Positions 6,054 through 47,313 of a DNA stretch of 64,000 bases are shown piece by piece. The notes under the pieces are model-generated. The model did no database searches, had not been told where the DNA came from, and worked only from the letters and a program-made list of their open reading frames with translations. Each line of letters opens with the position of its first letter. Position 1 is the first letter of the stretch. The translations under genes were made by a program, and so were the position numbers. Origin of the DNA: Deltaproteobacteria bacterium (GTDB lineage: Bacteria > Desulfobacterota > Dissulfuribacteria > Dissulfuribacterales > Dissulfuribacteraceae); contig WGBU01000011.1 of NCBI GenBank assembly GCA_015494155.1, positions 874 through 64,873 of the forward strand. Reading direction: 5' to 3'.

Positions 6054-8783
6054 TCAAAGCCATTTTTCGAGAATAGAGAATAAGTCATTAGTATCAAAAG
6101 GTTTAGAGATATAATCATCCAGACCTGAATTTAGAATGAACTCCCTGTCGCCCTTCATGGCCTTTGCAGTAAGGGCGATTATTGGTGGAGGGCTACTACT
6201 TTTTATTCTTATCTCTCGAGTTGCACTTATACCGTCCATCTCTGGCATCTGTATATCCATGAGTATGAGGTCAGGCCGCTCCTTTAATGCGAGTTCCACT
6301 GCCTCTTTTCCATTGGAAGCATGAATGATCTCGAAACCCCTGGGTCTCAACATCTCATTCAATAGAAAGAAGTTGTCTGGATTGTCTTCTGCCACCAATA
6401 TTTTGGGCCTCCTTTCTCCCTCATCCGTAGCATCTCCTTTTCCACCAGCCTCTCTTTTGGCCCTGTCCATGATCTCCTTGGGGAGTAGTAGGGCATTTAT
6501 CTGGTTTTTAAGGTCCTCTTGTCTGATGTTTCCCTTCTGTAAGATGGACTTCACATTGGGGGGAAAGAGTCGCTTTGTATCGCTGTCCACATCTAGGCTA
6601 CTCAATACCAAGACTGGGATGTCCCTGGTGGCGTCGTCTCTCGTCATCTCTCGTAAAAATGCAAAACCATCCATTACTGGCATCTTGAGGTCGAGCAACA
6701 CGATGTCGGGCAATTGCTCCCTGAGTACCTTGAGTCCTACCAATGGGTTGCTACAATAGAGTACCTCAAAACCGGCCTGTTTTAGTGCTGTGCTGACCTC
6801 TTTTCCAACCAGTAGGTCATCATCTACCAAAAGGACCCTCTTTGAACTCTGGCGGTCATCCACCTCCTTAGGGGCGTCTTCGCCTGGAGAGGCGCTTTCT
6901 TGTGGGTAGAGAAGTGTATTTTTTAGCCTCTTTTTCCATTCCTCATCGGGCATCCTGTATTTGCTCCTGCGGTCCACAGGGATCAGGACCTTGAATGTGG
7001 TCCCCTTGCCTACCTCACTCTCTACACTAATCTCCCCTCCCAAAAGGGTGGAGAGCTTCTTGCATATGCTTAGTCCAAGGCCAGTACCTCCATATTTTCG
7101 GGTATATGACCCATCAACCTGTCTAAAGGGCTCGAAGATGAACTCTAGGGCATCCTCTGGTATCCCAATACCCGTGTCTGAGACGGTAAACCTGATAAAG
7201 TCCCTATCCTTTCCCTCTACTCCGTCTACTTTCAGTAGGACCATCCCAGATTCAGTGAACTTTATGGCGTTCCCTAGGAGATTGACCAGGATTTGGCGCA
7301 CCTTTTTTGAGTCTGAATAGATGGTCTTTGGGGCATGGTCTATGTCGCACTTGAATTCGAGGCCCTTTGACTCTGCGAGGGGAAGCATCGCCTTACATAC
7401 ACCTGTGACAAAGTCTGGCACATATATAATGTCGTAGTGAAGCTCTTCCCGCCCAGATTCGATACGTGTGAGATCGAGTATGTCGTTTATGAGGTCCAGC
7501 AGATTTTGTCCGTTTCTCAATACTATGTCCAGATACTCCTGTTGCCTTGGTGAGAGTGGGTGCTCTTGGTCCTCTTTGAGTAGCCGTACGAGGCCCAGTA
7601 TGGAATTAAGTGGGGTGCGGAGTTCGTGGCTCATATTAGACAGGAATACAGACTTCATCCTGTTGGCCTCTTCAGCCTCGATACTCTTTTGTTCAAGGGC
7701 GTCCTTCTGCGCAGCTAGCTCCTCTGCCTGTGCCTGTATCTCCTCTGTCTGGGCCATTAATTCTTCGCTCTGTGCCTGGAGTTCCTCGTTTTGTGCCTGG
7801 AGCCTTTCATTCTTTTCCTGCAGTTCCTGTTGAAGTCCCTTGAGCCGCTCTATGAAAAATGCATTCTGGATGGCCACTGCCAGTTGTCCGCAAAGTCCCT
7901 TGAAGAAAGGGCCATAGGGTTTTAGCGATTGAAGAGAAGAGAGTTCCAACATGCCAAGGCGATTTTCCTTTATAGTAAAGGGGAGGAAAACGAGGTGGAG
8001 GCGTTTGGCTTCGAAGAGGCCTGATTTCAACTTCATATAGTCAGGTGGTACATCCTCCAAGAAATAGGCCTCTTTTCTCTTGAAGACCTCACCGAAGAGC
8101 CCTTCTTTGCACCCTATAGGGGGTGGCGTGTGTGTTAGACCAATACCGTGGACACCTACTAGGGTCTCTCCATCGTCATGGCTCACCACATAAAAGGCAC
8201 CAGAGAGAATTGGTAGAAACTCTACAAGGGCTTCCAGTACGCGTTGCGCCATGGCCTCGATCTCCACCTCTTCATTCAAGATCTTGGAGATCTCATATCC
8301 AAGTTCCAACTCCTTTAGACGATGCTCTAACTCCCTGTTTTTCTTCTCAAGGCTCTTGGAGAAGGCCATGAGGTCGCTCTGATCTGTAATGGCCTCGATG
8401 ATCCCAATAATCTCACCCTTTTCATTAAAAAAAGGTGTCGCCCTGCATGTGGCTGGAAACGAAGTACCGTTCCACAATATGCATTCAAAGTGCTGTACCA
8501 CCTCCCTTTCACCATTGAGGATGAGCCTTACAGGGCATTCGTCTGTATTGCAGAGGGTATCGCTCCTGGCGATCTCATAGCAGCGTTTACCAATGATCTG
8601 TGGATCCAACACCTGGCACAACGAATTCATGGCCGGGTTGTGGGCGAGGATTGAAAAGTCTGTACCTACAATCCTTATGGGAGTAAGACCCTGGTGGTAC
8701 AACTGATAAACCGCCTCGTAGGTCAATATCCCATCGTCATCATATATGGAAATCGTGGGATTTTTGCGAGGAATGGGTATCAT
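6054..8783 (-). CDS. Hybrid sensor histidine kinase (Cys-rich PAS, GAF, Gln/Glu-rich coiled coil, HisKA, HATPase, two REC domains)
   Basis: 909 aa. The H-box is MSHELRTPLNS, with ATPase boxes LLGNAIKFT, DTGIGIP and GGTGLGLSICKKL. REC1 reads VLLVDDDLL..LLDLKMPVMDG and REC2 reads ILVAEDNPDN..LMDIQMPEMDG. Confidence 0.85.
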   Translation of the reverse strand: MIPIPRKNPTISIYDDDGILTYEAVYQLYHQGLTPIRIVGTDFSILAHNPAMNSLCQVLDPQIIGKRCYEIARSDTLCNTDECPVRLILNGEREVVQHFECILWNGTSFPATCRATPFFNEKGEIIGIIEAITDQSDLMAFSKSLEKKNRELEHRLKELELGYEISKILNEEVEIEAMAQRVLEALVEFLPILSGAFYVVSHDDGETLVGVHGIGLTHTPPPIGCKEGLFGEVFKRKEAYFLEDVPPDYMKLKSGLFEAKRLHLVFLPFTIKENRLGMLELSSLQSLKPYGPFFKGLCGQLAVAIQNAFFIERLKGLQQELQEKNERLQAQNEELQAQSEELMAQTEEIQAQAEELAAQKDALEQKSIEAEEANRMKSVFLSNMSHELRTPLNSILGLVRLLKEDQEHPLSPRQQEYLDIVLRNGQNLLDLINDILDLTRIESGREELHYDIIYVPDFVTGVCKAMLPLAESKGLEFKCDIDHAPKTIYSDSKKVRQILVNLLGNAIKFTESGMVLLKVDGVEGKDRDFIRFTVSDTGIGIPEDALEFIFEPFRQVDGSYTRKYGGTGLGLSICKKLSTLLGGEISVESEVGKGTTFKVLIPVDRRSKYRMPDEEWKKRLKNTLLYPQESASPGEDAPKEVDDRQSSKRVLLVDDDLLVGKEVSTALKQAGFEVLYCSNPLVGLKVLREQLPDIVLLDLKMPVMDGFAFLREMTRDDATRDIPVLVLSSLDVDSDTKRLFPPNVKSILQKGNIRQEDLKNQINALLLPKEIMDRAKREAGGKGDATDEGERRPKILVAEDNPDNFFLLNEMLRPRGFEIIHASNGKEAVELALKERPDLILMDIQMPEMDGISATREIRIKSSSPPPIIALTAKAMKGDREFILNSGLDDYISKPFDTNDLFSILEKWL

Positions 8784-35862: not shown

Positions 35863-36351
35863 ATGGGAAACATATCTTATATGCGCTGCCTTTTCATAGT
35901 AGCTACTATTTTGCTTTTTGCAAAGCCCGCCTTCGCAGTCCAGGTCCATGGCCCACCCGAAGGACTTTATGTCCATATTATAGCCCACATCTTCTTTTCC
36001 TCGGCCATAATCTTCTTGCTCTTTCTTTTTAAGAGACACCCACCTGGAAGGGGTACACCATGGCGCTATCTCAGATGGAGCCTGTTCATGTTCCTACTCT
36101 GGAACATAGATACCCTGATAGTCCATATCCTCTCCATAGGCATACCTGAGGCCGCACTTCACATGCCAGAGGATATCTTTCAACACGCACTCCTCCCCCC
36201 TATTACTGCCAAGGAGATATTGTTTTATGTATTGAGAAACGACCATCTCCTGTGTGTACCTGCAATGCTATTCCTGGTGTTGAGCCTCCGCTCATTTTTG
36301 AGGGAGCCAGGTGGGGAAAACGATACATTCTATCCTGAGGGAAAAGGGTGA
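35863..36351 (+). CDS. Integral membrane protein translationally coupled to the sensor kinase
   Basis: 162 aa with about 4 TM helices. An alternative start at ATG 35881 gives the signal-like MRCLFIVATILLFAKPAFA. The stop TGA overlaps the kinase GTG start (GTGA). Confidence 0.5.
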   Translation: MGNISYMRCLFIVATILLFAKPAFAVQVHGPPEGLYVHIIAHIFFSSAIIFLLFLFKRHPPGRGTPWRYLRWSLFMFLLWNIDTLIVHILSIGIPEAALHMPEDIFQHALLPPITAKEILFYVLRNDHLLCVPAMLFLVLSLRSFLREPGGENDTFYPEGKG

Positions 36352-37916
36352 ATAGGCCACTACCACTCTTTCCAATATATCTAGTGGACTTCCTTGGTGC
36401 CATATTGATGGTGGTCCTCTCTATAATGGCACTGCGCTATGCTAAGCAGTTGAAAGACAGGCATCCTAAGAGTGTTCTCTTCTCATATCTCTTCTGGCTC
36501 TCCTTATCCTTTGTGGCCCTATCTATCTCCAGGAGCTTTGGCCATGCAGTGAGATTCATACTGGTATTCCTGGGAGAACCAGAACTCTGGCGAGTGATCA
36601 GGCCCTTGAGTGGTGGGCTCAATACCATGACATTTGTCTCTGTTGGGATTTTGACATTCTATTACCCCAATATAAGAGGGGTGATGAAACTTGTAAGGGA
36701 CGAGGCCCAGGCGGTAAAGCGTGCCAAAGAGGAGCTTGAGAAGGCACACAAGGAGCTTCGTGAATTAAACCGGACCCTTGAAGATAGGGTGCGCGAGCGC
36801 ACCCAAGAACTCATGCTCTCGCAGCAAAAGTTTAAACGCCTCTTTGAAAATTCAAAGGACGCCATCTTCTTTTGCGATGACATGGGGTGTATTTCAGACA
36901 TGAACAGGAGTGGTATAGAACTCTTGGGATATGAGAGAAAGGAAGATGTCCTGGGCCGGCCGATGAAGGCATTCTTTAGAGACCAGAATGACTGGAGGAA
37001 ATACTATACCAGTATTTGTAGGAACGGGTTCATCAAGGACTTCGAGACCGAGATCCTGAAAAAGGATGGCTCTACGATCAATGTGATAATCAGTGCTGCT
37101 GCAATTATAAATGAACATGGAGAGACCACTGGCTGCGAGGGGATCGCCAAGGATATCACATCGTTCAAGAAGATGACCGAAAAGCTTGTCTATTCTGAGA
37201 AGATGGCGGCCATAGGACAGCTCGCTGCTGGCGTGGCCCATGAGATAAACACACCACTTGGAATCATCTTGGGTTACACCCAGCTCCTAAAGGAGGACTT
37301 CGAAAAGGACCCCAATGTGCTCCAAGACCTGGAGATAATGGAAAAGCAGGCAAAGAACTGTAAACGCATTGTCTCTGACCTCTTGAGTTTTGCGAGGTCT
37401 ACGTCCAGTGGTACCAGTGAGGAGGTGGATGTGAATGAGTGTCTCATACAGACCACGGCGCTCATACGCCATTCCCTAGAGATGGATCAGATCGAGTTGG
37501 AGCTGAGGTTGGCCGAGTCTGTGCCAAGGATCGTTGGGGACAAAGACAGGATCAGCCAGGTGTTCCTAAACATATTGACAAATGCACACCAGGCCATTGG
37601 TGAAAAAGGACACGTTTTGATCGAGACCTACTATGACGATTCGGCCAAGTCTGTAATAGTGAGGATAGCAGATTCAGGACCAGGCGTCCCAGACGAGATT
37701 AAGCACAAGATGTTCGATCCATTCTTTACTACAAAGCCTGTGGGTAAGGGTACTGGACTGGGGCTTAGCGTGTCTTATGGTATAATTCAGGAATTAAAGG
37801 GGACTATTGAGGTCATATCACCTCCAAAGGACCCAGAGTATCTCAAGATGGGGTTGAATACCGAGTTTAGGATTCAACTCCCAGTGAGTGGGCTCACCAA
37901 GGGAAAGGAGGTGTGA
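36348..37916 (+). CDS. Membrane sensor histidine kinase (TM bundle, coiled coil, PAS, HisKA, HATPase)
   Basis: 522 aa. The H-box is [11 protein letters not shown], with N/G boxes [14 protein letters not shown] and [14 protein letters not shown]. Confidence 0.85.
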
Positions 37917-37919
37917 GCA

Positions 37920-38123
37920 ATGGCAGAAAAGAAGGTCACCAAACGCCCGTGGCGGAAGCATAAAGAATTTAAGTGCCATGTGTGTAATCGGGAGCTTCCC
38001 TTCTGCTGGAATTGCCCCTGTGGATTTCAGATATGCGATGATTGCCTAAAAGAGAATCTATGGGGTATGAGTAATGGCCCCACTTGGATCTGTCCAGACT
38101 GTGGTCGTGTAAGGATGTTTTAG
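37920..38123 (+). CDS. Cys-rich zinc-ribbon-like micro-protein inside the two-component operon
   Basis: 67 aa with 9 Cys arranged CxxC-x6-CxxCxC-x4-CxxC-x15-CxxC. It starts 3 nt after the kinase stop and is directly abutted by the regulator gene. Confidence 0.55.
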   Translation: MAEKKVTKRPWRKHKEFKCHVCNRELPFCWNCPCGFQICDDCLKENLWGMSNGPTWICPDCGRVRMF

Positions 38124-38129
38124 TTGGCC

Positions 38130-39542
38130 ATGAGCAAAGAGGCAAAGATACTCATTGTGGACGACGAAGAGGATCTCTGCACCATGTTGAAGCGGCTCTT
38201 TGAGAGAAAAGGGCCATATTCTGTGATCACATCCAATTCACCTTTTGAGGCACTTAAGATAGTCAAGGAATGGCGTCCTGATGTGGTGGTGACTGATGTA
38301 AAGATGGATGGGATGGACGGGATAGAACTCCTTAGGAGGATTCAAGACGTTGATTCTTATTGTTCCACCATTGTGATAAGTGGTTTTGGTACAGTGGAGA
38401 TGGCAGTGGACGCCATAAAGCTTGGGGCCTACGACTTTCTCGAAAAGCCCTTTGACAACACAAAGGTGCTCCATACTGTCAAACGTGCTGTGGAGCGCAC
38501 CAGGCTCCTCAGGGAGAATGCCAGGCTATCTCAGGCAGTGCGTACCGAGTATGACTTTTATGGTATTGTGGGGTCGTCGCCTGCCATCCAGGAGGTGAAG
38601 CGGCTCATCGAGCAAGTGGCAGCCTCTGATGAGACAGTGCTTATACAAGGTGAGAGCGGTACCGGAAAAGAGCTTGCAGCACGGGCCATACACGCCCTAA
38701 GCCCTCGCAGAAAAAAGAGGATGATCACCGTAAATTGTGCTGCCCTTCCAGAAAATATCTTGGAGAGTGAGCTCTTCGGCTATGAAAAGGGGGCATTTAC
38801 TGGGGCGCTTCAGAGGAAGAAGGGGCTTTTTTTTGAGGCACAGGGATCTACCATCCTCTTGGACGAAATAGGCGATATGCCCGTATCACTCCAGACAAAG
38901 CTCTTGAGGGTATTGCAGGAGAAGGAGATAAGGCCCCTTGGCTCTACACGCGACATCCCCATTGATGTCAGGGTCATCGCCTCCACAAATCAGGACCTAG
39001 AGGAGGGGATAAATAGGGGTACCTTCAGGGCAGACCTCTATTATCGGCTAAATGTTGTCACTATCACCATGCCCCCACTACGGGAGATGAGGGGGGACAT
39101 CCCCATACTCGCAAACCACTTCCTCAAGAAATTTTCAGTACAGTTCCAAAAAGAGGGCCTAAATTTTTCAGAAGATGCACTGGTCTGTCTCTCTGAGAGG
39201 GCGTGGCGCGGCAATGTCAGAGAGCTTGAAAACGCCATAAAGCGCGCGGTGTTACTCAACGAATCTGGTCTCATTGAGGCAAGGGACATAGTGGGTACAG
39301 GGGGCAACAATGGTGCCATCCCGTGTGGCGAGGGCTTTATGGATTTTCTCGTCAACAGACCCTATGGGGTTGCAAAAAAGGAGCTCGTAACAAGATTTTC
39401 CATTAGTTACTTGAAGCACGTGTTAAATAAGACTGGCGGAAACGTCTCTGAGGCAGCCAGGGTAAGCGGCATGGAGCGCCAGGCCCTACAACGTCTTATG
39501 AGGCAATATGGCATCCGGTCTGCCGATTTTAAATCCCATTAG
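38130..39542 (+). CDS. Sigma-54-dependent response regulator (NtrC/AtoC family)
   Basis: The REC reads ILIVDDEED..VVTDVKMDGMDG. The AAA+ domain has Walker A GESGTGKE and the GAFTGA loop (EKGAFTGAL), and a C-terminal Fis-type HTH is present. I use ATG 38130; the track starts at TTG 38124. Confidence 0.9.
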   Translation: MSKEAKILIVDDEEDLCTMLKRLFERKGPYSVITSNSPFEALKIVKEWRPDVVVTDVKMDGMDGIELLRRIQDVDSYCSTIVISGFGTVEMAVDAIKLGAYDFLEKPFDNTKVLHTVKRAVERTRLLRENARLSQAVRTEYDFYGIVGSSPAIQEVKRLIEQVAASDETVLIQGESGTGKELAARAIHALSPRRKKRMITVNCAALPENILESELFGYEKGAFTGALQRKKGLFFEAQGSTILLDEIGDMPVSLQTKLLRVLQEKEIRPLGSTRDIPIDVRVIASTNQDLEEGINRGTFRADLYYRLNVVTITMPPLREMRGDIPILANHFLKKFSVQFQKEGLNFSEDALVCLSERAWRGNVRELENAIKRAVLLNESGLIEARDIVGTGGNNGAIPCGEGFMDFLVNRPYGVAKKELVTRFSISYLKHVLNKTGGNVSEAARVSGMERQALQRLMRQYGIRSADFKSH

Positions 39543-39544
39543 AT

Positions 39545-39581
39545 TGCAATAATAATGTAGCACTGCAACATATATGTTGCA
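39545..39581. promoter_or_regulatory. Tandem 18-bp dyads, candidate enhancer (UAS) for the NtrC-type regulator
   Basis: TGCAATAATAATGTAGCA (39545-39562) and the perfect palindrome TGCAACATATATGTTGCA (39564-39581). They lie about 100-130 bp upstream of the sigma-54 promoter. Confidence 0.45.
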
Positions 39582-39676
39582 CTTTTCTTGTCTATCCCCC
39601 ATGTTTTGTTAGGTCTCTAATTATATAACACTCTGTTTTTACACAAGAATATCTTTTTGTGACTTTTCCCTCAATC

Positions 39677-39692
39677 TGGCACTCCATTTGCG
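39677..39692 (+). promoter_or_regulatory. Sigma-54 (-24/-12) promoter
   Basis: TGGCACtccatTTGCg matches the TGGCAC-N5-TTGCW consensus exactly. It is intergenic, 78 nt upstream of the rex ATG and directly downstream of a sigma-54 activator gene. Confidence 0.7.
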
Positions 39693-39769
39693 TAATCTCT
39701 AACAAAGCGCGCTTTTTTGGGGTTTTTATTCGTGCCCTGGGGCATCACATCACAAAGGGGGAACATTTT

Positions 39770-40480
39770 ATGGAAAAAGGCAAAAAGATCCCTGCTGCCA
39801 CCATCTTCCGGTTGTCTGTCTATAGGCAACACCTCTTGGAGATGAGGAAGCAGGGGAGGAGAACGGTGTCGTCGCTTGAGTTGGCATCGGCTGCACGGGT
39901 GAACCCTGCACAGCTCCGAAAGGATCTGTCCTATTTTGGTCGTTTTGGGGTGCGTGGGGTTGGATACAGTGTGGACGGGCTATTACAGGAGATTTCCACT
40001 ATCCTCGGGTTGAGGAGGCCATGGAATCTGTGCGTACTGGGTGGCGGCAAGGTGGGACGGGCCATAATTGTAAGTGGTCACCTGGAACAGAGGGGCTACT
40101 TCGTTGAGGCAGTCTTTGACTCAAGGCCAGAGATCATCGGACACTCTATTGGGCCAGGGCTTGTGGTGGAAGACATTAGAGGTGCAGGTATGAGCCTACC
40201 TCAAAAAGAGGTATTCCTCTGTATGATCACAGAGGAGGTGCCAGACTTAAACGGCTGTGTGCATAGGCTGCTCGATGCGGGCATAAGGGGATTTTTGAGC
40301 CTTGTACCTGTGAGTGCATCTATTCCTCCCACAATACCTGTCCAATACATGGACTTTACTACGCTCCTCGACACCTTGGCCTATACCCTGACGCACGGTG
40401 TTAACAGGGGAGGCCCAGATTTTTTGGAAGGTGAACCAGTCACAACGGAAAAACCGCCCATGGGGGCATGTCTTGTTTAA
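39770..40480 (+). CDS. rex: Redox-sensing transcriptional repressor Rex (with a ~30-aa C-terminal extension)
   Basis: The N-terminus is MEKGKKIPAATIFRLSVYRQHLLEM..VSSLELA..QLRKDLSYFGRFGVRGVGY, and the Rossmann motif is VLGGGKVGRA. I start at ATG 39770 because the track extension back to 39659 contains the sigma-54 promoter. Confidence 0.8.
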   Translation: MEKGKKIPAATIFRLSVYRQHLLEMRKQGRRTVSSLELASAARVNPAQLRKDLSYFGRFGVRGVGYSVDGLLQEISTILGLRRPWNLCVLGGGKVGRAIIVSGHLEQRGYFVEAVFDSRPEIIGHSIGPGLVVEDIRGAGMSLPQKEVFLCMITEEVPDLNGCVHRLLDAGIRGFLSLVPVSASIPPTIPVQYMDFTTLLDTLAYTLTHGVNRGGPDFLEGEPVTTEKPPMGACLV

Positions 40481-40501
40481 ATAGAGAAAGGAGGCCATTA
40501 A

Positions 40502-42193
40502 ATGTATAGGGCGTTTATGAAAAAGTTAATTTTCCTGGTCTTGGTTACAGTCTTTGGGCTCTTTTGGGGTAGCACACAGGGTTGGTCTGCTGCAGAAGTC
40601 ACCTTGGACAAGACTGAATATGGGGCAGGACAACCTATTACCATCAAGGGGAAGATAGATCCAGGTCAAGACCTCTTCCTAGTCTTGTGTACTGACAAGA
40701 TGTTCAGACCACAGGACTCCCCAGGAGAGAAGGAACGGGAAAAGCTCACCAAGAAATTTGGTGATACAGCGATTCCTCCCATTTACTATCTCATCACTAC
40801 AAAGCCAGACTATTTTGCCACACCTAAAGGGGTTGCCAAGGGACAGACCAAGGGTATCTTTGCCTTCCCACCCTTTAAGTTTATCGTGCGAGTAAACAAG
40901 CTTAAAAAGTGGGACGAAATACCATCTGAGGTGAAGGGTCTGCTTGGGCCAATTAACTCCAAGGCCCAGTGGGACTTTCTGATTTATACCCATGAAAAGA
41001 AGTTTGGTATAAACACCATTACCAAAGAGCGGCCCATTGGCGGCGGTAATGCCCGCATGGTATTGACAGACTACAACGTCCAGAAAGAGGCATGGAACAA
41101 GGGTGTGTCCATCGACCTCGACAGGAATACTGGTCGTTTCACAGTGGTAGTCACACCATATAAGAATATAGCCCCAGGGACCAAGATGGCCATCTGGGTA
41201 AATGGCCAAAAGAATGCAACCTATGTGGTTAAGCCCGCAGGTTATTTCTTTAAGACCGCCAATACATACATGAATCCCCTGGTGGTGCTCATCGGTGCAT
41301 TCATCATTGGTGTCTTATTCGTGATCATGGGAGCTGCAGGCGGGCTCTTTACTGCCGCATTCCAGATCACAGTCCTGGGCACCAAGGGGCCCATTGGTAT
41401 CAATGCTGCAAACACTGTGAAGCCTACAAACCTCTTTCTCACCCTATGTTCACCCATCACAGGGTTAATCAGCTATTTTAAAGACAAGCGCTTTGCCTGG
41501 CCAGTGGCCATATTCTTTGCCATCGGTATCTTTATCGGCGCATTCTTCCTTGGACCTACATTCTCGGCCAAGTATCTGCCCATGAAGGCATATAAGTTCT
41601 ATCTGGGTGTGATCTGTTTCTTCATTGGCCTCAAGTTGTTCCACGAGAGTCTACCCAGCACCATCGAAAAGAAGAAGGCCCTTAAGGCCATTGTCCAGAA
41701 GTTCAACCAGGCGGTCAAAGAGGCCAAAAAGACTGGAAAGGCGGCAGAGCTTGGGAAAGTGGAGTTCGACAAGTTCAACATTGTCAAATTTGACATGCGT
41801 TTCTGGGGCGAGACCTTTGTAGCAAGGCCGCTGGCAATGCTCATTGGCGGTATTCTCATGGGTATGATCGCTGCCTCCTTTGGTGTAGGCGGTGGATTTA
41901 TGTTCATGCCATTCATGACCTCCATTATGGGCTATCCCATGTACCTTGCTGTGCCCATTGCACTTTCAGGCACATTTGCCACTAGTGTTGGTGGTATTGG
42001 TAAGTACATACTCTTGGGTTATTCCCCTGACTGGCTCATGGCAGTATTGATCGCGGCAGGCGCAATTGGCGGTGGTATGGTCGGGCCCAAGATCCAGAAG
42101 AGACTACCAGAGATCTTCCTCAAGAGACTCCTGGCCCTGGCACTCATCATTGTGTTCATGAAGTACACAAAGCTCTTGTGGTTCATGAGGTAA
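40502..42193 (+). CDS. TSUP/TauE-SafE-like anion transporter with a ~250-aa N-terminal extracytoplasmic domain
   Basis: 563 aa. A signal peptide and soluble domain are followed by two TM halves carrying TauE-type Gly-rich motifs (MGAAGGLFTAAF, SFGVGGGFMFMPF). A charged loop separates the two halves. Confidence 0.65.
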   Translation: MYRAFMKKLIFLVLVTVFGLFWGSTQGWSAAEVTLDKTEYGAGQPITIKGKIDPGQDLFLVLCTDKMFRPQDSPGEKEREKLTKKFGDTAIPPIYYLITTKPDYFATPKGVAKGQTKGIFAFPPFKFIVRVNKLKKWDEIPSEVKGLLGPINSKAQWDFLIYTHEKKFGINTITKERPIGGGNARMVLTDYNVQKEAWNKGVSIDLDRNTGRFTVVVTPYKNIAPGTKMAIWVNGQKNATYVVKPAGYFFKTANTYMNPLVVLIGAFIIGVLFVIMGAAGGLFTAAFQITVLGTKGPIGINAANTVKPTNLFLTLCSPITGLISYFKDKRFAWPVAIFFAIGIFIGAFFLGPTFSAKYLPMKAYKFYLGVICFFIGLKLFHESLPSTIEKKKALKAIVQKFNQAVKEAKKTGKAAELGKVEFDKFNIVKFDMRFWGETFVARPLAMLIGGILMGMIAASFGVGGGFMFMPFMTSIMGYPMYLAVPIALSGTFATSVGGIGKYILLGYSPDWLMAVLIAAGAIGGGMVGPKIQKRLPEIFLKRLLALALIIVFMKYTKLLWFMR

Positions 42194-42199
42194 AAAGAG

Positions 42200-42883
42200 A
42201 TGTTGGATGTCACAAGCCGCATTTTAGACTGGCTCTGGCTGGGACTGGTGGTCCCAGCCGCGGCCACTGTGGGGGATCTAGTTGCCCGGGTTACCCTAGG
42301 CCCTATGAACGCCCTTTGTGTTCCACCTGTGATTCAGGTTGCCGTCATAGGGGCACTGACTGCTCTTTTGTCTATGGGGATTAAGAGGTTGCTACACATA
42401 GATGAAAAAGAGGCAGAGTTCCTTGGGGAAATAGAGGCAAGAAAAGAGGCCCGCGACCTTTTGAGGGACGTCTCCGATTGGAAGGTAAAAGAGGTGCTAC
42501 AAAATGCCACGGACAGCGATATCGATGAGGTGTACAATACCTACATATCGCATAAATTCGCCTGGTTTGGGATCTCATACCTCCTGCCAATATTCCTCAC
42601 ACTCTTTTGGCTGGATACCAGGGTGGAATTCGCTGGGGTGCGATTCGTGCTGGAATTTCCTCAGCGACCCTTTGGGATACCCGGGCTATCTGTGCCCATG
42701 ACATTTTTTATTGGGTATCTTGCCACCCTCTTTAGCTTACGGAAGGCCCTTGGGAAAAGGGACCTAGAGGGACGGCTGGTGGCACCCAATGGTGGCCTCA
42801 ACCAAAGTGCTGGACCAGGCAGTGGCAGGGGCCATCTAGGGGACGACCATAGGCAAAGGGCCGTTACCCCCACTACCATGTAA
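42200..42883 (+). CDS. Membrane protein of unknown function
   Basis: 227 aa. About 2 N-terminal TM helices are followed by a charged helix (EKEAEFLGEIEARKEARDLLRD), 2 more TM helices, and a Gly/Arg-rich tail. Confidence 0.45.
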   Translation: MLDVTSRILDWLWLGLVVPAAATVGDLVARVTLGPMNALCVPPVIQVAVIGALTALLSMGIKRLLHIDEKEAEFLGEIEARKEARDLLRDVSDWKVKEVLQNATDSDIDEVYNTYISHKFAWFGISYLLPIFLTLFWLDTRVEFAGVRFVLEFPQRPFGIPGLSVPMTFFIGYLATLFSLRKALGKRDLEGRLVAPNGGLNQSAGPGSGRGHLGDDHRQRAVTPTTM

Positions 42884-42905
42884 AATCGTTTTAAAAGGAG
42901 GCACT

Positions 42906-45020
42906 ATGGCAAAGACCGTTTGGAGTATGTGTGGAATGTGTTCTGTCCGATGCCCGATACGGGTAGAGGTAGATGATGGAGAGATAACCTGGATCGAGGG
43001 TAATCCCCATATCCTAAAGCATTCATTGTGTGCCAAGGGATCGGCAGGGATCGCCCTATATAAAGATAGTGAACGCCCCCAGACCCCCCTCATAAGGCGC
43101 GGGGGGCGCGGTGCTGGGCAATGGGACCCAGTGAGCTGGGAGACAGCCATAGACTATGTGGGGGAGAAGCTTGAAAAGATCATATCGAAGTATGGGGGCC
43201 GTTCTATCATGTTGAGTTGTAGAGGCGGGCCATTTATGGACCTTTTTAAGGCCTTTATACATGCGCTAGGCTCTCCCAATTTCACCAATCACGACAGCGC
43301 GTGTGGAAGAAACGTGCACCATGCAAGCCTCTCTCTCTATGGGGTTGGCCGCAAGGGGTTTGTATATGACATAAAGAATGCAAACCACCTCATCCTGTTC
43401 GGGCGTAATATCTTGTCGTCTCTTAGGGTTGCAGAGGTCCAACAGGTGATGGACATGCTGGACAAGGGTGGGAGCCTTACATACGTAGATGTGAGGCAGA
43501 CACTTACTGGTGTAAAGGCCACTAGATTTTTCCAGGTACGTCCAGGCACAGACTATGCCCTGGCACTGGGCATGATAAACGAGGTGCTCAAACAGGGTGC
43601 ATATGACCAGTCGTTCATAGATCGCTATACTACTGGGTTCGATGAACTAGTAAAATTCGTAGAACCCTATACTGCTGAATGGGCCGCCAAGGAGTGTGGT
43701 GTCAAGGCGAATAAGATAAAGGACTTTGTCAAAGAGATCAAAGATCAGATGCCCAGGGTGATCTTCCACCCAGGATGGATGCTCTCTAGATACAAGGATT
43801 CCTTCTATGCAAGCCGTGCACTACACATCTTGAATGTATTGATGGGGAATATTGAAGTTGAAGGGGGACAGATATTCCCCAAGGGACCAGGGGATTGTGG
43901 CGTCAAGGGCTTAAGGAGTCTGGACGCACAGGTCCCAAAGCCCGAAGAGAAGCGCGCCGATGGAGTGGGGTGGCGCTATAAGCACTTTGACAAGGGACCA
44001 GGCCTCTTCCACCTATTCTATGATGCCATGGTCACAGAAGACCCCTATCCCATAAAGGCCCTCATCTGCTATAGGCACGATCCTTTTAACTGCTTCCCAG
44101 ACCCGCAGGCGCAAAAAGAGGCCCTGGAAAATTGCGATCTACTCATATCCATAGATACCCACTACAGCGAGTTTGGGTGGTTTAGCGATGTGATCCTCCC
44201 AGAGTCCATGTATCTCGAAAGAGAATCCATCATTGCCACCCAGAAGGGGCCAAAGCCCAGGTTCATTGTGAGACAAAAGGCAGTGGAGCCGCGATTCAAC
44301 ACCAAGGCGGCATGGGAGATATTCAAACTCCTGGCAGATCGCATGGGAGTGGGCCAATACTTCCCCTATGAGACCATTGAGGACCTGTGGAAGTGGCAAT
44401 TGGAGCCCACCGGATTCAAGATAGAGGACTTTAATGCCAAGGGCTTTATCCCGCTCACAGACAAGCCCATCATGTATAACAGGGACGAACTGGAAGGGAA
44501 ATTTAAGACCCCCTCTGGTAAGATAGAGTTCGTGAGTCAAAAGCTCGAAGAGGTGGGCATTCCATCCCTCAAGCCCTATGAGTCCCCGCTCCATCCACCC
44601 AAGGGTAAATTTAGGCTGGTGTTTGGACGTTCACCAGTCCACGCCCATGGTCACACTATAAACAATCCAATGCTCCACGAATTGATGCCAGAAAACACCC
44701 TCTGGATCAACAGGCGTGCAGCAGACAAGCTGGGTATTAAGGATGGGGACCTCGTGGACGTAGTCTCAGACACACAAAAAGGTGTGGTGAGGGCACACGT
44801 CACCGAGTTCATCCATCCTGAGGCCGTTTATACGGTCCATGGTTTTGGCAGACAGATACCGCTACAGTCAAGGGCATATCATGCTGGCATGAGCGATCAG
44901 AAGCTCATGGAAGGACTGTTGCAGAGTATGGATCCAGCAGGGGGAGGGCTGTGTCTCTGTGAGAAATTCGTGACTGTACGAAGGAGCCCCAGAAATCCAA
45001 AAAGGAGGATCGAGCTATGA
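42906..45020 (+). CDS. Molybdopterin (bis-PGD) oxidoreductase catalytic subunit, no Tat signal (Psr/Phs/Ttr-like clade by motif)
   Basis: 704 aa. The 4Fe-4S motif C9-x2-C12-x3-C16-x25-C42 begins at residue 9, so no signal peptide is possible. HDSACGRN supplies a probable Cys Mo ligand. SD AGGAGG lies upstream. Confidence 0.85.
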   Translation: MAKTVWSMCGMCSVRCPIRVEVDDGEITWIEGNPHILKHSLCAKGSAGIALYKDSERPQTPLIRRGGRGAGQWDPVSWETAIDYVGEKLEKIISKYGGRSIMLSCRGGPFMDLFKAFIHALGSPNFTNHDSACGRNVHHASLSLYGVGRKGFVYDIKNANHLILFGRNILSSLRVAEVQQVMDMLDKGGSLTYVDVRQTLTGVKATRFFQVRPGTDYALALGMINEVLKQGAYDQSFIDRYTTGFDELVKFVEPYTAEWAAKECGVKANKIKDFVKEIKDQMPRVIFHPGWMLSRYKDSFYASRALHILNVLMGNIEVEGGQIFPKGPGDCGVKGLRSLDAQVPKPEEKRADGVGWRYKHFDKGPGLFHLFYDAMVTEDPYPIKALICYRHDPFNCFPDPQAQKEALENCDLLISIDTHYSEFGWFSDVILPESMYLERESIIATQKGPKPRFIVRQKAVEPRFNTKAAWEIFKLLADRMGVGQYFPYETIEDLWKWQLEPTGFKIEDFNAKGFIPLTDKPIMYNRDELEGKFKTPSGKIEFVSQKLEEVGIPSLKPYESPLHPPKGKFRLVFGRSPVHAHGHTINNPMLHELMPENTLWINRRAADKLGIKDGDLVDVVSDTQKGVVRAHVTEFIHPEAVYTVHGFGRQIPLQSRAYHAGMSDQKLMEGLLQSMDPAGGGLCLCEKFVTVRRSPRNPKRRIEL

Positions 45021-45469
45021 ATCGCTATCTCCTATATCTGAATTCCAAGAGGTGCATTGGATGTCATGGGTGTGAAGTACACTGTAAGACCAATAAACAT
45101 CTGCCAGTAGGACCACTTCTCTGTGAAATATCACATGAGCCCTTAAAGAACGTACGTGGGGTCCCCAAGACAGAGTACCACTTTAGGTCATGCTACCACT
45201 GTGAAGAGCCTTTCTGCGTACCCATCTGTCCCACTGGTGCCATGCAAAAGCGGGAAGATGGCATCGTGTTTGTGGACCAGGAAAAGTGTATTGGGTGCAT
45301 GGCCTGTCAAGGGGCATGTCCATGGCATATCCCCCAGTTTAATCCAGAGACTGGCAAGGCAATAAAGTGTGACTACTGTATGGATAGGATAGATGCAGGG
45401 TTAAAGCCCGCATGTGTAACAAAGTGTACTACACATGCCTTGAGGTTCGTTGAGCTAAAGGAGATCTAG
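45017..45469 (+). CDS. 4Fe-4S ferredoxin-type electron-transfer subunit (DmsB/PsrB-like)
   Basis: 150 aa. The motifs are CIGCHGCEVHC, CYHCEEPFCVPICP, CIGCMACQGACP and CDYC..C..C. There is an ATGA overlap with the catalytic subunit gene. Confidence 0.85.
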   Translation: MNRYLLYLNSKRCIGCHGCEVHCKTNKHLPVGPLLCEISHEPLKNVRGVPKTEYHFRSCYHCEEPFCVPICPTGAMQKREDGIVFVDQEKCIGCMACQGACPWHIPQFNPETGKAIKCDYCMDRIDAGLKPACVTKCTTHALRFVELKEI

Positions 45470-45509
45470 GCCAAGAGTATATAAAGGTCGGGTCCTAGGT
45501 ATTAACCGT

Positions 45510-45545
45510 GGCGCCTGGCCCCTTGAGGGGGCAGGCGCCTTTTTT
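45510..45545 (+). terminator. Strong intrinsic terminator after the oxidoreductase operon
   Basis: GGCGCCTGGCCCC-ttga-GGGGGCAGGCGCC (12 of 13 bp paired) followed by TTTTTT. The T-tract overlaps the stop of convergent pepF. Confidence 0.7.
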
Positions 45546-47313
45546 ATACGGCGATATTGTCCACCATTTCTTCTATCTTTTTGAGCCCCTGTTCCCAGAA
45601 CTTGGGTGAATCTAGGTCTATCCCAAAGGGCGAAAGGAGGGTATAGGGGTCTTCTTTTCCGCCTGACGAGAGGAGTTTGATGTATTTTTGGACAAAGTCT
45701 TTTCCTCCAGAATCTTCATACATGGCATAGAGTGCCAGGACCAGTAGCTCGCCAAAGGCGTATGCATATACATAGCCAGGGGCATGAATGAAGTGACTAA
45801 TGTATGACCACCAGTGTCTGTATTCTTGGGTGAGTTCAACAGAATCTTTGAACATTTCCCGTTGAGTCTTTATCCACAACTCTCCAAAGGCATCGGGCGG
45901 CAATTCGCCTTGTGTGCGCCTTGCTGTATGAATCGCATCTTCAAAGCGATTCATGGCTATCTGTCTGAATATAGTGGCAAAGATACTTTCCACCTTTTCA
46001 CAAATTAGCGCCCTTCTGGCCTCCTCGTCTTTGAGCCGCTTTAAAAGGGCCTTAAAGACCAGCATCTCCCCAAATACCGATGCTGTCTCTGCCAGGGGAA
46101 GTGGTGTGTGGGAGTTGAAATATCCCACCTCACGTGACAGGTATTGGTGTATGCCATGGCCCAGCTCGTGTGCCACTGTCTCCACGTCCCTGATCCGTCC
46201 AGTATAGTTTACCAAGAGATATGGGTGGCATGAGGGCACTGTGGGGTGTGCAAAGGCCCCACTAGTCTTGCCTGGGAGGACTGGGGCATGGATCCAGCCC
46301 TCGTCGAAGAATTTTTTACCAATGGTCCCAAAGGTATCTGAAAATTCAAAGTAGGCCTGAAGTACAATCTCCTTGCACTCGTCCCAATGGATCACCTCTT
46401 CAGAGCCTCCTGGGACAGGGGCGTAGCGATCGTAGTCGAAGAGGGTGTCAAGGCCCAAGAGCCGCGACTTTTTCTTGTAGTACTTCGCCACTATTTCGTA
46501 GTGGTCTGTTACTGTGTCCACTAGCACCTGGACCGTGTCGTCGCGCAGTTCGTTCGAGAGGTTCATGGAGCTGATCCAACTGGAATAGTGTCTGAGCCTA
46601 TCCTCGATGGCCTTTTCCATGAGCACTGTGTTAAAACAGTGGGTGAGTACGTGTTCTTCCTGCTTGAGCCCCTCGGTGAAGTCTTTGTGGGCCTTCTTTC
46701 TCACGTTGCGGTCTGGACTGTAGAGGTCTGATAGGACCTCCTCTTGGGTCCTCTCTTCCGCGCCAAAACGCAGGTGCGCCATGACTTTTTCAAAGAGAGT
46801 GATCCAACTCGACCTACCCACTGGGCTAAGATCTATGAGGAGTTTTTCTTGCTCTTCGCTCAGGGTATGTGGTGCAAGACGCCTTAAAAACGCGAGATAG
46901 TGTCTATAGTGTTCTATCGTCTTGTCTTTCAAGATGGTAGAGGCCAGATCTTCTGGGACCTTTTGCCACTCGAGATCGAAGAACACCAGATGTCTTTGGA
47001 TCTCTGCGCCTTCTTCCCTTATGCGCTGGAGAAAGGCACCCTTTTGGGGATCTGTGCAGTTGGTAGAAAAATCTAACTGTGCATAGGCAGCAATCCTGGC
47101 AAAGCGTTCATTAAGTGCCTCTAGTTCCCTTACGAGGTCGTGCAGCCCTTGGGGAGTGAGGTCTTTGACATGCCCCTTGTGGGTCTCTTCGATCTCCTTT
47201 GCCCGGGCCTTTACCTCGCCCAGGTCCTTTTCTATCTGTGGATCATCTGGCCCTTTGTAGAGATGTGAAAGGTCCCATATGACGCCTTCTGCACCAAGTG
47301 TCTTTTCCTGCAT
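45544..47313 (-). CDS. pepF: Oligoendopeptidase F (M3B metallopeptidase)
   Basis: 589 aa. The zinc motif is HELGHGIH, and the overall length and pattern match PepF. Confidence 0.9.
   Translation of the reverse strand: MQEKTLGAEGVIWDLSHLYKGPDDPQIEKDLGEVKARAKEIEETHKGHVKDLTPQGLHDLVRELEALNERFARIAAYAQLDFSTNCTDPQKGAFLQRIREEGAEIQRHLVFFDLEWQKVPEDLASTILKDKTIEHYRHYLAFLRRLAPHTLSEEQEKLLIDLSPVGRSSWITLFEKVMAHLRFGAEERTQEEVLSDLYSPDRNVRKKAHKDFTEGLKQEEHVLTHCFNTVLMEKAIEDRLRHYSSWISSMNLSNELRDDTVQVLVDTVTDHYEIVAKYYKKKSRLLGLDTLFDYDRYAPVPGGSEEVIHWDECKEIVLQAYFEFSDTFGTIGKKFFDEGWIHAPVLPGKTSGAFAHPTVPSCHPYLLVNYTGRIRDVETVAHELGHGIHQYLSREVGYFNSHTPLPLAETASVFGEMLVFKALLKRLKDEEARRALICEKVESIFATIFRQIAMNRFEDAIHTARRTQGELPPDAFGELWIKTQREMFKDSVELTQEYRHWWSYISHFIHAPGYVYAYAFGELLVLALYAMYEDSGGKDFVQKYIKLLSSGGKEDPYTLLSPFGIDLDSPKFWEQGLKKIEEMVDNIAV

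Follow-up and report, generated by a model that had tools for sequence, protein, structure and literature searches.

A candidate thiosulfate uptake and cytoplasmic cleavage operon in a Dissulfuribacter-like bacterium, centered on a signal-less PhsAB-like enzyme and a DUF8269-TauE transporter

The DNA analyzed here, called the window throughout, is a stretch of 64,000 nucleotides (nt) of contig WGBU01000011.1 from a bacterium of the Dissulfuribacteraceae. Our subject is a run of five genes at 39770-45469 of the window that encode a Rex-family regulator, a TauE-type permease, a membrane protein of 227 amino acids (aa), and the two subunits (A and B) of a molybdenum enzyme resembling thiosulfate reductase (PhsAB). 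The window population belongs to hydrothermal-vent metagenomes, and near-identical copies are present in the metagenome-assembled genome (MAG) GCA_027022945.1. An interpretation made beforehand from the letters and open reading frames (ORFs) of this DNA, referred to as the sequence-only reading, had proposed a sigma-54-dependent operon for an uptake-coupled cytoplasmic reductase, with a sulfur oxyanion as a guess at the substrate. The features of the operon, in coordinates of the window, are as follows.

39679..39694, + strand: sigma-54 promoter TGGCACTCCATTTGCG (-24 GG, -12 GC; TGGCAC-N5-TTGC), found by pattern match
39770..40480, + strand: rex, operon gene 1, redox-sensing repressor family
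40502..42193, + strand: TSUP/TauE permease with DUF8269, 563 aa (Pfam TauE)
42200..42883, + strand: 227-aa membrane protein (gene tm227), no Pfam or NCBIfam family for the window copy
42906..45020, + strand: phsA-like catalytic subunit with molybdenum bis(pyranopterin guanine dinucleotide) (Mo-bisPGD), 704 aa (Pfam Molybdop_Fe4S4, Molybdopterin, Molydop_binding)
45017..45469, + strand: phsB-like ferredoxin subunit, 150 aa (Pfam Fer4_11, 4e-26)
45509..45546, + strand: intrinsic terminator, a GC-rich hairpin (45509-45539) followed by T6, identified by folding energy

All five ORFs were verified on the + strand, with intergenic gaps of 21, 6, and 22 nt and then a 4-nt overlap, and a Shine-Dalgarno sequence stands ahead of every start codon. 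The terminator hairpin folds with -31.4 kcal/mol (z = -5.2), a stability that none of 200 shuffled sequences equaled. Genes and gaps are exactly those of the sequence-only reading, which had also named the promoter before them and the terminator after them. Housekeeping genes flank the operon, and the GC content is even. From the position of the five genes between a sigma-54 promoter and a terminator, we infer that they form one operon and are co-transcribed. Among the RNA runs searched for the locus none carries it, and the data sets that do are all hydrothermal-vent DNA metagenomes.

The A subunit matches the Pfam domains PF04879, PF00384, and PF01568. The cysteines of its FS0 cluster (C9, C12, C16, and C42) are conserved in no fewer than 126 of the 131 relatives aligned, and the motif that they form begins at residue 9. 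No twin-arginine (RR) motif was found on the subunit, and a twin-arginine translocation (Tat) signal hidden by a misplaced start can be discounted because only 22 nt separate the gene from the stop codon upstream. In all 73 orthologous loci, taken from GTDB species genomes, the alignments of the A subunit begin at residue 1-3. These features place the A subunit in the cytoplasm. Cys133, within HDSACGRN, aligned with Cys173 of Thermus thermophilus PsrA (2vpw_A), which Jormakka and colleagues reportedly identified in 2008 as the Mo ligand; this column is Cys in 116 of the 131 sequences, and Cys133 is the predicted Mo ligand of the window enzyme. The B subunit holds 17 Cys in four [4Fe-4S] motifs. 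Its best match in the PDB is PsrB (2vpw_B; 2.2e-28, over residues 1-146 of 195), of which it lacks the C-terminal ~49 residues present in the T. thermophilus protein. A gene for an NrfD-type anchor was found neither in the operon, nor within ~10 kb in those syntenic loci for which Pfam calls exist, nor adjoining phsAB across the 73 loci. By its sequence and gene context, the AB enzyme is an anchor-less Mo enzyme of the Psr/Phs type. The claims made earlier for a Tat-less cytoplasmic catalytic subunit, a Cys at the Psr/Phs ligand position, and a small ferredoxin partner with no NrfD/PsrC-type anchor all held.

Salmonella-type PhsABC shares with the window enzyme its set of domains, the Cys in the ligand column, and a B subunit with four clusters, but it is exported by Tat to the periplasm, anchored by PhsC (NrfD type), and uses menaquinol, whereas the window enzyme has neither Tat signal nor anchor. 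PsrABC of T. thermophilus is a complex seated on PsrC and facing the periplasm, again unlike the anchor-less enzyme described here. SoeABC of sulfur oxidizers, also related to Psr/Phs, has an A subunit without a Tat signal and oxidizes sulfite on the cytoplasmic side, but it retains a membrane subunit of the NrfD type and is quinone-linked; the window operon has no such subunit, and no model named for Soe was among the 25 best NCBIfam matches of the A subunit.

The best NCBIfam match of the A subunit was the thiosulfate reductase model PhsA (NF012032) with 517.3 bits, followed by Fdh-alpha with 232, and among solved structures its best match is the polysulfide reductase PsrA of T. thermophilus (2vpw; 3.9e-105, ~35% identity). 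When we searched 50%-identity cluster representatives with the A subunit, the whole ortholog group was contained in one representative of 1370 bits and the next match had 664 bits at 44% identity, a drop from which we conclude that the clade is tight and well separated. Its nearest neighbors (38-44% identity) are likewise signal-less, with Cys motifs that begin at residues 8-26, and Tat-bearing relatives appear only at 39% identity or below. A neighbor-joining (NJ) tree of 131 sequences, approximate and without support values, united the signal-less proteins in one group, within which the window clade sits on a long stem. In the sister group are the Tat-bearing P0287, P0297, and P0300, true PhsA by their scores of 998-1058 bits on the PhsA equivalog; a different Tat-bearing clade contains Thermus PsrA. 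The phylogenetic placement that the sequence-only reading had suggested as a check thus brings the enzyme near true PhsA, in a signal-less subclade of its own rather than inside the Tat-bearing PhsA. Homologs at 68-95% identity were found in Dissulfurimicrobium hydrothermale, Desulfurivibrio, Desulfocapsa sulfexigens, Thiovibrio, and Desulfolithobacter, with further ones in many Desulfobulbales, Dissulfuribacterales, and Thermodesulfobacteria MAGs. The named isolates among these carriers are known sulfur disproportionators.

In Dissulfuribacter thermophilus S69T, one contig shows gene-for-gene synteny with the window. The shared order runs nitroreductase, c5 (a small membrane protein), histidine kinase, sigma-54 activator, rex, DUF8269-TauE, small membrane protein, Mo subunit, and Fe-S subunit, and 3' of the Fe-S gene both have a convergent M3 peptidase gene and tRNA-Thr-ED. 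Identity between the two is 87% for TauE, 86% for PhsA, 84% for PhsB, 79% for the kinase, 74% for the activator, 71% for c5, 66% for Rex, and 48% for the 227-aa protein. An exact-sequence look-up identified the D. thermophilus A and B subunits as UniProt A0A1B9F387 and A0A1B9F2R9, which are the PhsA*/PhsB* ("cytoplasmic PhsAB-like") of a 2026 proteomics study (PMC13490349). There, the two proteins were raised by log2 2.45 and 3.51 during thiosulfate disproportionation relative to growth on H2/sulfite, placing them among the most increased, and cytoplasmic thiosulfate cleavage by the PhsAB-like enzyme was put forward as the likely initial step of disproportionation (PMC13490349). The window AB pair, which shares with that enzyme the lack of a Tat signal and of a C subunit and the synteny from c5 to the convergent peptidase gene, is by these comparisons an ortholog of the published candidate. 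The enzyme is, to that extent, already described; the sequence-only reading had held the gene combination to be new, and this stands for the operon partners and not for the enzyme.

The same study lists a TauE/SafE protein and a "transmembrane protein co-occurring with TauE" (A0A1B9F8M2 and A0A1B9F8H6) as increased on thiosulfate (PMC13490349). The pair adjoining phsAB in D. thermophilus is A0A1B9F2X2/A0A1B9F2S0, and the exact-sequence look-up led us to reject the reported TauE (DITHS69_1990) as the TauE of the operon. In the portions of PMC13490349 consulted, the adjacent DUF8269-TauE, the 227-aa protein, and the sigma-54 two-component system are undiscussed and the word "Rex" is absent; a literature search on DUF8269 or the co-occurring membrane protein returned nothing beyond that paper. 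Two further enzymes are likened to the window enzyme here on the basis of their published descriptions: Desulfolithobacter dissulfuricans has a two-subunit PhsAB without a C subunit that was detected on thiosulfate (PMC9751629), and in Ca. Desulfobulbus rimicarensis phsAB is among the most abundant transcripts (PMC7117923). As far as the sections consulted go, the papers on these two organisms and on D. thermophilus treat the A and B subunits only and not neighbors of the window type.

The permease matches Pfam TauE (PF01925) over aa 263-554 (1.5e-28; 100.5 bits against a gathering score of 32.6), and its orthologs match PF26800 (DUF8269). It consists of a signal peptide (aa 1-29, with predicted cleavage after GWSA), a periplasmic DUF8269 domain of ~225 aa (~aa 30-255), and 4+4 transmembrane (TM) helices, and between the two groups of helices lies a conserved cytoplasmic insert of ~55 aa (~aa 384-442) comprising one long helix and a beta hairpin. 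This layout bears out the earlier prediction of a TauE/TSUP transporter with a large extracytoplasmic domain. The 4+4 helices are common to TSUP (PF01925), from which the window permease differs by its signal peptide, DUF8269, the insert, and its dedicated small partner; our literature search found no described function for any TSUP of the DUF8269 architecture. The AlphaFold model of the permease has a mean pLDDT of 72, with most of the N-domain at 84-92, and shows the periplasmic domain as two beta-sandwich lobes with helical inserts. When the DUF8269 domain was compared with the PDB by Foldseek, only generic Ig-like sandwiches (E >= 0.1) were returned, and no ligand could be inferred from them. 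The N-domain contains many invariant residues and no conserved Cys, a pattern that speaks against persulfide carriage and fits anion binding better. The membrane part of the permease is 77-91% identical across loci whose PhsA is 68-88% identical.

The partner gene tm227 follows tauE in 18 loci. From the N-terminus, its product comprises a helical/TM region, a long coiled coil in the cytoplasm, and another two TM helices, and the family is fast-evolving, most homologs being 39-55% identical. For the window protein, neither a Pfam match, even at E = 10, nor an NCBIfam match was found, so its earlier description as a protein of no known family holds for the window copy. Homologs give weak signs of a relationship: 6 of 10 match PF01956 (EMC3_TMCO1) weakly, with a best E of 2.8e-5, and UniProt labels the D. 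thermophilus ortholog DUF106. The top two Foldseek matches of the 227-aa protein are both TMCO1 (E 0.035, with probability 0.96, and 0.38), and a search of the PDB with a sequence profile of the family gave noise only. Tentatively, the protein may be a very distant DUF106/TMCO1-like member of the Oxa1 superfamily. The DUF106/EMC3/TMCO1/GET1 proteins have a similar layout of TM region, coiled coil, and two TM helices; the 227-aa protein differs in being bacterial and tied to a transporter instead of to ribosome-linked insertion. Structure prediction, also suggested beforehand as a check, gave a two-lobed fold with generic matches only for the transporter N-domain and TMCO1 as the weak top matches of the 227-aa protein.

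Two variants of the transporter were seen among the loci (denoted by L numbers). In Desulfurivibrionaceae such as Hydrosulfovibrio ferrireducens (L040:5632-7065 and 7087-7476), the phsAB-linked TSUP is split at the cytoplasmic loop into one gene for the periplasmic domain and first four helices and a second (129 aa) for the last four. The split version is 28% identical and retains the signal peptide as well as a periplasmic domain beginning with the shared motif ITLDKT...G..ITV.G; its loci are without a tm227 homolog. A second type of DUF8269-TauE and small-TM pair occurs in L075:7001-14241, L078:222-14352, L032, L047, L054, and L059. It is followed by an ~820-aa PPDK_N/PEP-utilizers protein, which has a rifampicin-phosphotransferase-like layout and no recognized C-terminal domain, and then by a dual-specificity-phosphatase-like protein and a sigma-54 activator. 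In D. thermophilus, DITHS69_1990 (TauE), DITHS69_1989 (TM), and a "PEP synthase" were all increased on thiosulfate, the last being DITHS69_1988 in the table and DITHS69_1161 in the text of the paper (PMC13490349).

Conservation of the gene neighborhood was counted in 36 of the 73 phsA-anchored genome loci, those flanked on each side by 4 kb or more. Across all 73, phsA and phsB occur together and phsB always follows phsA. Among the 36, a TauE-family gene is present in 22 and a kinase homolog (at least 40% identity) in 24, and 27 have at least one of transporter, kinase, and activator. The linkage of tauE to phsAB persists in at least five gene orders. The first is activator, tauE, tm227, an optional stand-alone receiver (REC) gene, and phsAB; in the second, tm227 and tauE are divergent from c5, kinase, and phsAB; the third reads c5, kinase, REC, phsAB and, farther on, tauE, tm227, the PPDK-like gene, the phosphatase-like gene, and activator; the fourth is that of the Desulfurivibrionaceae with the split transporter; and the fifth has a secreted rhodanese, tauE, and phsAB, then in some loci an outer-membrane porin. 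The rhodanese, a secreted single-domain protein, is encoded upstream in L023, L024, L028, L058, and L064, and a Porin_5-type outer-membrane protein downstream of phsAB in L023, L028, and L064, an arrangement that fits a flux from outside to inside. A transporter missing beside phsAB can be encoded elsewhere in that genome: in the Thermodesulfobacteria MAG GCA_013154175.1, phsAB is on one contig (L013) and a rex-tauE pair, of the kind seen in L076/L077, stands apart from it on another. That the linkage has outlasted rearrangement and deep divergence argues well for functional coupling. By gene content, the transporter, the kinase/c5 pair, the sigma-54 activator, and the promoter recur around phsAB across Desulfobulbales-like lineages. 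Of the five operon genes, whose co-occurrence the sequence-only reading had suggested testing, phsAB, tauE, and tm227 recur together and rex is confined to a few lineages; it is through this conserved transporter-enzyme linkage that an uptake-coupled cytoplasmic reductase is still the best reading.

The flanking genes also bear on what passes through the transporter and in which direction. We consider it rather unlikely that the enzyme is a cytoplasmic reductase of polysulfide or zero-valent sulfur, with the transporter importing S0-derived polysulfide or persulfide sulfur, and that it forms the reductive branch of disproportionation of elemental sulfur (S0) to sulfide. A secreted rhodanese and a porin flank some loci as they do in Psr operons (PMC12142623), the best solved relative is a polysulfide reductase, polysulfide reduction is thermodynamically easier than thiosulfate reduction, and orthologs are present in the obligate S0 disproportionators Dissulfurimicrobium, Desulfocapsa, Thiovibrio, and Desulfurivibrio. 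However, the PhsA model outscores all others, the NJ tree puts the clade closer to true PhsA than to Thermus PsrA, the D. thermophilus ortholog is induced on thiosulfate (PMC13490349), and the periplasmic domain has no conserved Cys for persulfide sulfur; in Desulfurivibrio dismutans, a lone PsrA-type gene, a possible ortholog, showed low expression on S0 (PMC12142623). An outward direction, with the transporter exporting sulfite (or sulfide or sulfate) made by the AB enzyme and protecting the cell while the substrate enters elsewhere, for example by YeeE/YedE, we judge improbable. Large, highly conserved periplasmic domains behind a signal peptide are hard to explain in an exporter, the upstream rhodanese and downstream porin of the variant loci point to import, and AprAB/Sat need sulfite inside the cell in the disproportionation model. 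What speaks for export is the name and customary annotation of the Pfam family, together with the proposal that in D. thermophilus a TauE-family protein exports sulfur compounds and thiosulfate enters via YedE (PMC13490349).

The conserved regulators sit upstream of the five genes, outside the 39770-45469 segment that the sequence-only reading had delimited. The corresponding features are listed here.

35863..36351, + strand: c5, ORF for a 162-aa membrane protein with no Pfam family
36348..37916, + strand: membrane PAS histidine kinase (Pfam PAS, HisKA, HATPase_c)
37920..38123, + strand: 67-aa Cys-rich, zinc-ribbon-like ORF between kinase and activator
38124..39542, + strand: sigma-54 enhancer-binding response regulator with REC, AAA+, and HTH_8 domains (Pfam Sigma54_activat 1e-70, Response_reg, HTH_8)
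39564..39581, no strand assigned: perfect palindrome TGCAACATATATGTTGCA (TGCAAC-N6-GTTGCA), a candidate upstream activating sequence, 115 nt upstream of the promoter

The c5 protein has a signal peptide, ~3 TM helices, and several conserved His, and the last 4 nt of its gene are shared with the start of the kinase gene. Of 74 loci, 26 contain c5, in each case next to the kinase, with which it may act as a co-sensor; the membrane PAS kinase is, from its domains and position, the likely sensor of the inducing signal. In many loci the activator gene immediately precedes tauE. The -24/-12 element is shared by ~30 loci in the corresponding place, in every case a short way upstream of tauE or rex and 2.3-3.2 kb before phsA, with no such element directly before phsA in those loci; under a strict form of the promoter pattern, 17 of the 21 matches in the 2 Mb searched fall at this tauE/rex-upstream position. 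The palindrome TGCAAC-N6-GTTGCA also occurs at -100 to -115 in L025 and L031, as an imperfect copy in D. thermophilus, and as the variant TGCATC-N6-GATGCA farther upstream (about -147 to -155) in L034 and L053. Conserved palindrome and promoter fit control by the adjacent enhancer-binding protein. The 67-aa ORF between kinase and activator has a counterpart of 82% identity in an uncalled D. thermophilus ORF (L074:7430-7630) and others in L004, L062, and L063; its Pfam matches are RING-like and weak only.

The proposal that Rex ties expression of the operon to NADH/NAD+ gained no support. Rex scores 179.7 bits on the NCBIfam subfamily NF003995 (cutoff 126) and below the cutoffs of the equivalog models; it matches Pfam Put_DNA-bind_N (PF06971, 4.6e-16) and has the GGGKVG Rossmann motif. 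At E <= 0.01, the window Rex matches only this N-terminal DNA-binding family, whereas the D. thermophilus ortholog also matches CoA_binding; because GGGKVG is present, this probably reflects divergence rather than loss of function. The Rex consensus TTGTGA-N6-TCACAA, with up to 2 mismatches, has 3 sites in the window where 2.9 are expected by chance. One of them, with 2 mismatches, lies beside the -24 element (39657-39674) and is not conserved in D. thermophilus. With a chance-level operator count and an unconserved site, we found no evidence of Rex control at this promoter and dropped that claim. As a gene of the operon, rex would be expressed together with it. Among the PhsA-anchored loci, rex adjoins the cluster only in the window, its copies L080-L082, D. 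thermophilus (L074), and L003. Confined to few lineages, Rex is not a core part of the module.

The best reading of the locus, in our view about an even prospect, is inducible uptake of thiosulfate followed by its reductive cleavage in the cytoplasm of a Dissulfuribacter-like disproportionator; a sulfur oxyanion, earlier a guess, is the leading substrate candidate. The PAS histidine kinase and c5 would sense a sulfur signal and phosphorylate the sigma-54 activator, which would bind TGCAAC-N6-GTTGCA and fire the -24/-12 promoter to give a single transcript of rex, transporter, 227-aa protein, phsA, and phsB ending at the terminator. The periplasmic DUF8269 domain would capture the anion, and the permease with its 227-aa partner would carry it into the cytoplasm. 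There, the PhsAB-like enzyme, either soluble or docked to the transporter, would cleave it reductively to sulfide and sulfite by means of Mo-bisPGD with its Cys133 ligand, the FS0 cluster, and the four B-subunit clusters. Because there is no quinol anchor, a carrier of low potential in the cytoplasm, for instance ferredoxin, would have to supply the electrons. Sulfite would pass to AprAB/Sat running in reverse.

Several points weigh against this reading. The score of 517 bits is below the PhsA equivalog cutoff of 694, and the residues after the ligand Cys are clade-specific, C-G-R-N-V/T-H-H-A-S as opposed to C-P-x-x in true PhsA; the chemistry may differ with the CGRNVHHAS motif, which calls for caution on the substrate. 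About 40% of the well-flanked loci have no transporter gene nearby, and TauE-family members are usually annotated as exporters. The TauE/TM pair raised on thiosulfate is, going by the sequence look-up, a paralog and not the phsAB neighbor. On thiosulfate, the PhsA-type proteins of Desulfolithobacter were present at low levels (PMC9751629). Thiosulfate reduction has an E0' of about -402 mV (PMC13490349), and the couple needs a low-potential donor; none is encoded nearby.

The clade-specific motif and the score below the equivalog cutoff would also suit another substrate, such as tetrathionate, sulfite, a selenium or arsenic oxyanion, or an organosulfonate, with the rise on thiosulfate an indirect effect. 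The TSUP family includes sulfonate transporters, and the substrates of complex iron-sulfur molybdoenzymes (CISM) cannot be read from sequence (PMC12998232). We nevertheless find this quite improbable: the carriers are almost exclusively inorganic-sulfur disproportionators or organisms related to them, the genes near the loci include none for desulfonation or a C-S lyase, and the thiosulfate induction was in defined medium (PMC13490349). Running in reverse, the enzyme would make thiosulfate from sulfite and sulfide, or oxidize reduced sulfur, and pass electrons of very low potential through B to ferredoxin, to be used in fixing CO2 via the Wood-Ljungdahl pathway, with the transporter exporting the product. 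The missing quinone anchor, the ferredoxin-like B subunit, and the range of a -402 mV couple are in keeping with this, as are hosts that are Wood-Ljungdahl autotrophs needing reduced ferredoxin (PMC9751629, PMC12142623). It is pure inference all the same, and induction with thiosulfate as the supplied substrate fits consumption and not production (PMC13490349); we regard such reversal as highly improbable.

A bolder form of the thiosulfate uptake reading, which we consider doubtful, is that permease, DUF106/TMCO1-like partner, and anchor-less PhsAB constitute one physical uptake-and-cleavage machine in which the permease insert replaces PsrC/PhsC as docking site and thiosulfate or S0-derived sulfur is reduced on entry. 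If true, it would supply the entry step so far missing from disproportionation in Desulfobulbales and Dissulfuribacterales, under the control of a sigma-54 sensor system. The mechanism of thiosulfate and S0 disproportionation is a long-standing gap in the sulfur cycle, and according to recent reviews there is no settled molecular marker for either process (PMC12998232). What is new here is the placement of the candidate AB enzyme in a conserved module with a TSUP transporter, a small membrane partner, a kinase/c5 pair, and a sigma-54 activator with its promoter and site, and the correction of which TauE gene partners the phsAB operon in D. thermophilus. A proteomic correlation is thereby turned into testable statements on transport, activity, docking, and induction, and the entry step of thiosulfate disproportionation becomes directly testable. 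Should the substrate be confirmed, the PhsA-like clade, being tight and well separated, could be adopted as a marker gene in metagenomes.

Other variations were noted around phsAB. A stand-alone receiver-domain regulator of ~120 aa lies directly upstream of phsA in L026, L034, L040, L078, and many other loci, and is absent from the window. The rhodanese variant clusters with a porin (L023, L028, and L064) carry a second Mo-enzyme fragment or gene of 538 aa on the opposite strand. In L004:8001-13000 and L063:6807-11500, there are two phsAB pairs on the same strand with two small reverse-strand genes between them, which suggests duplication of the enzyme in some MAGs.

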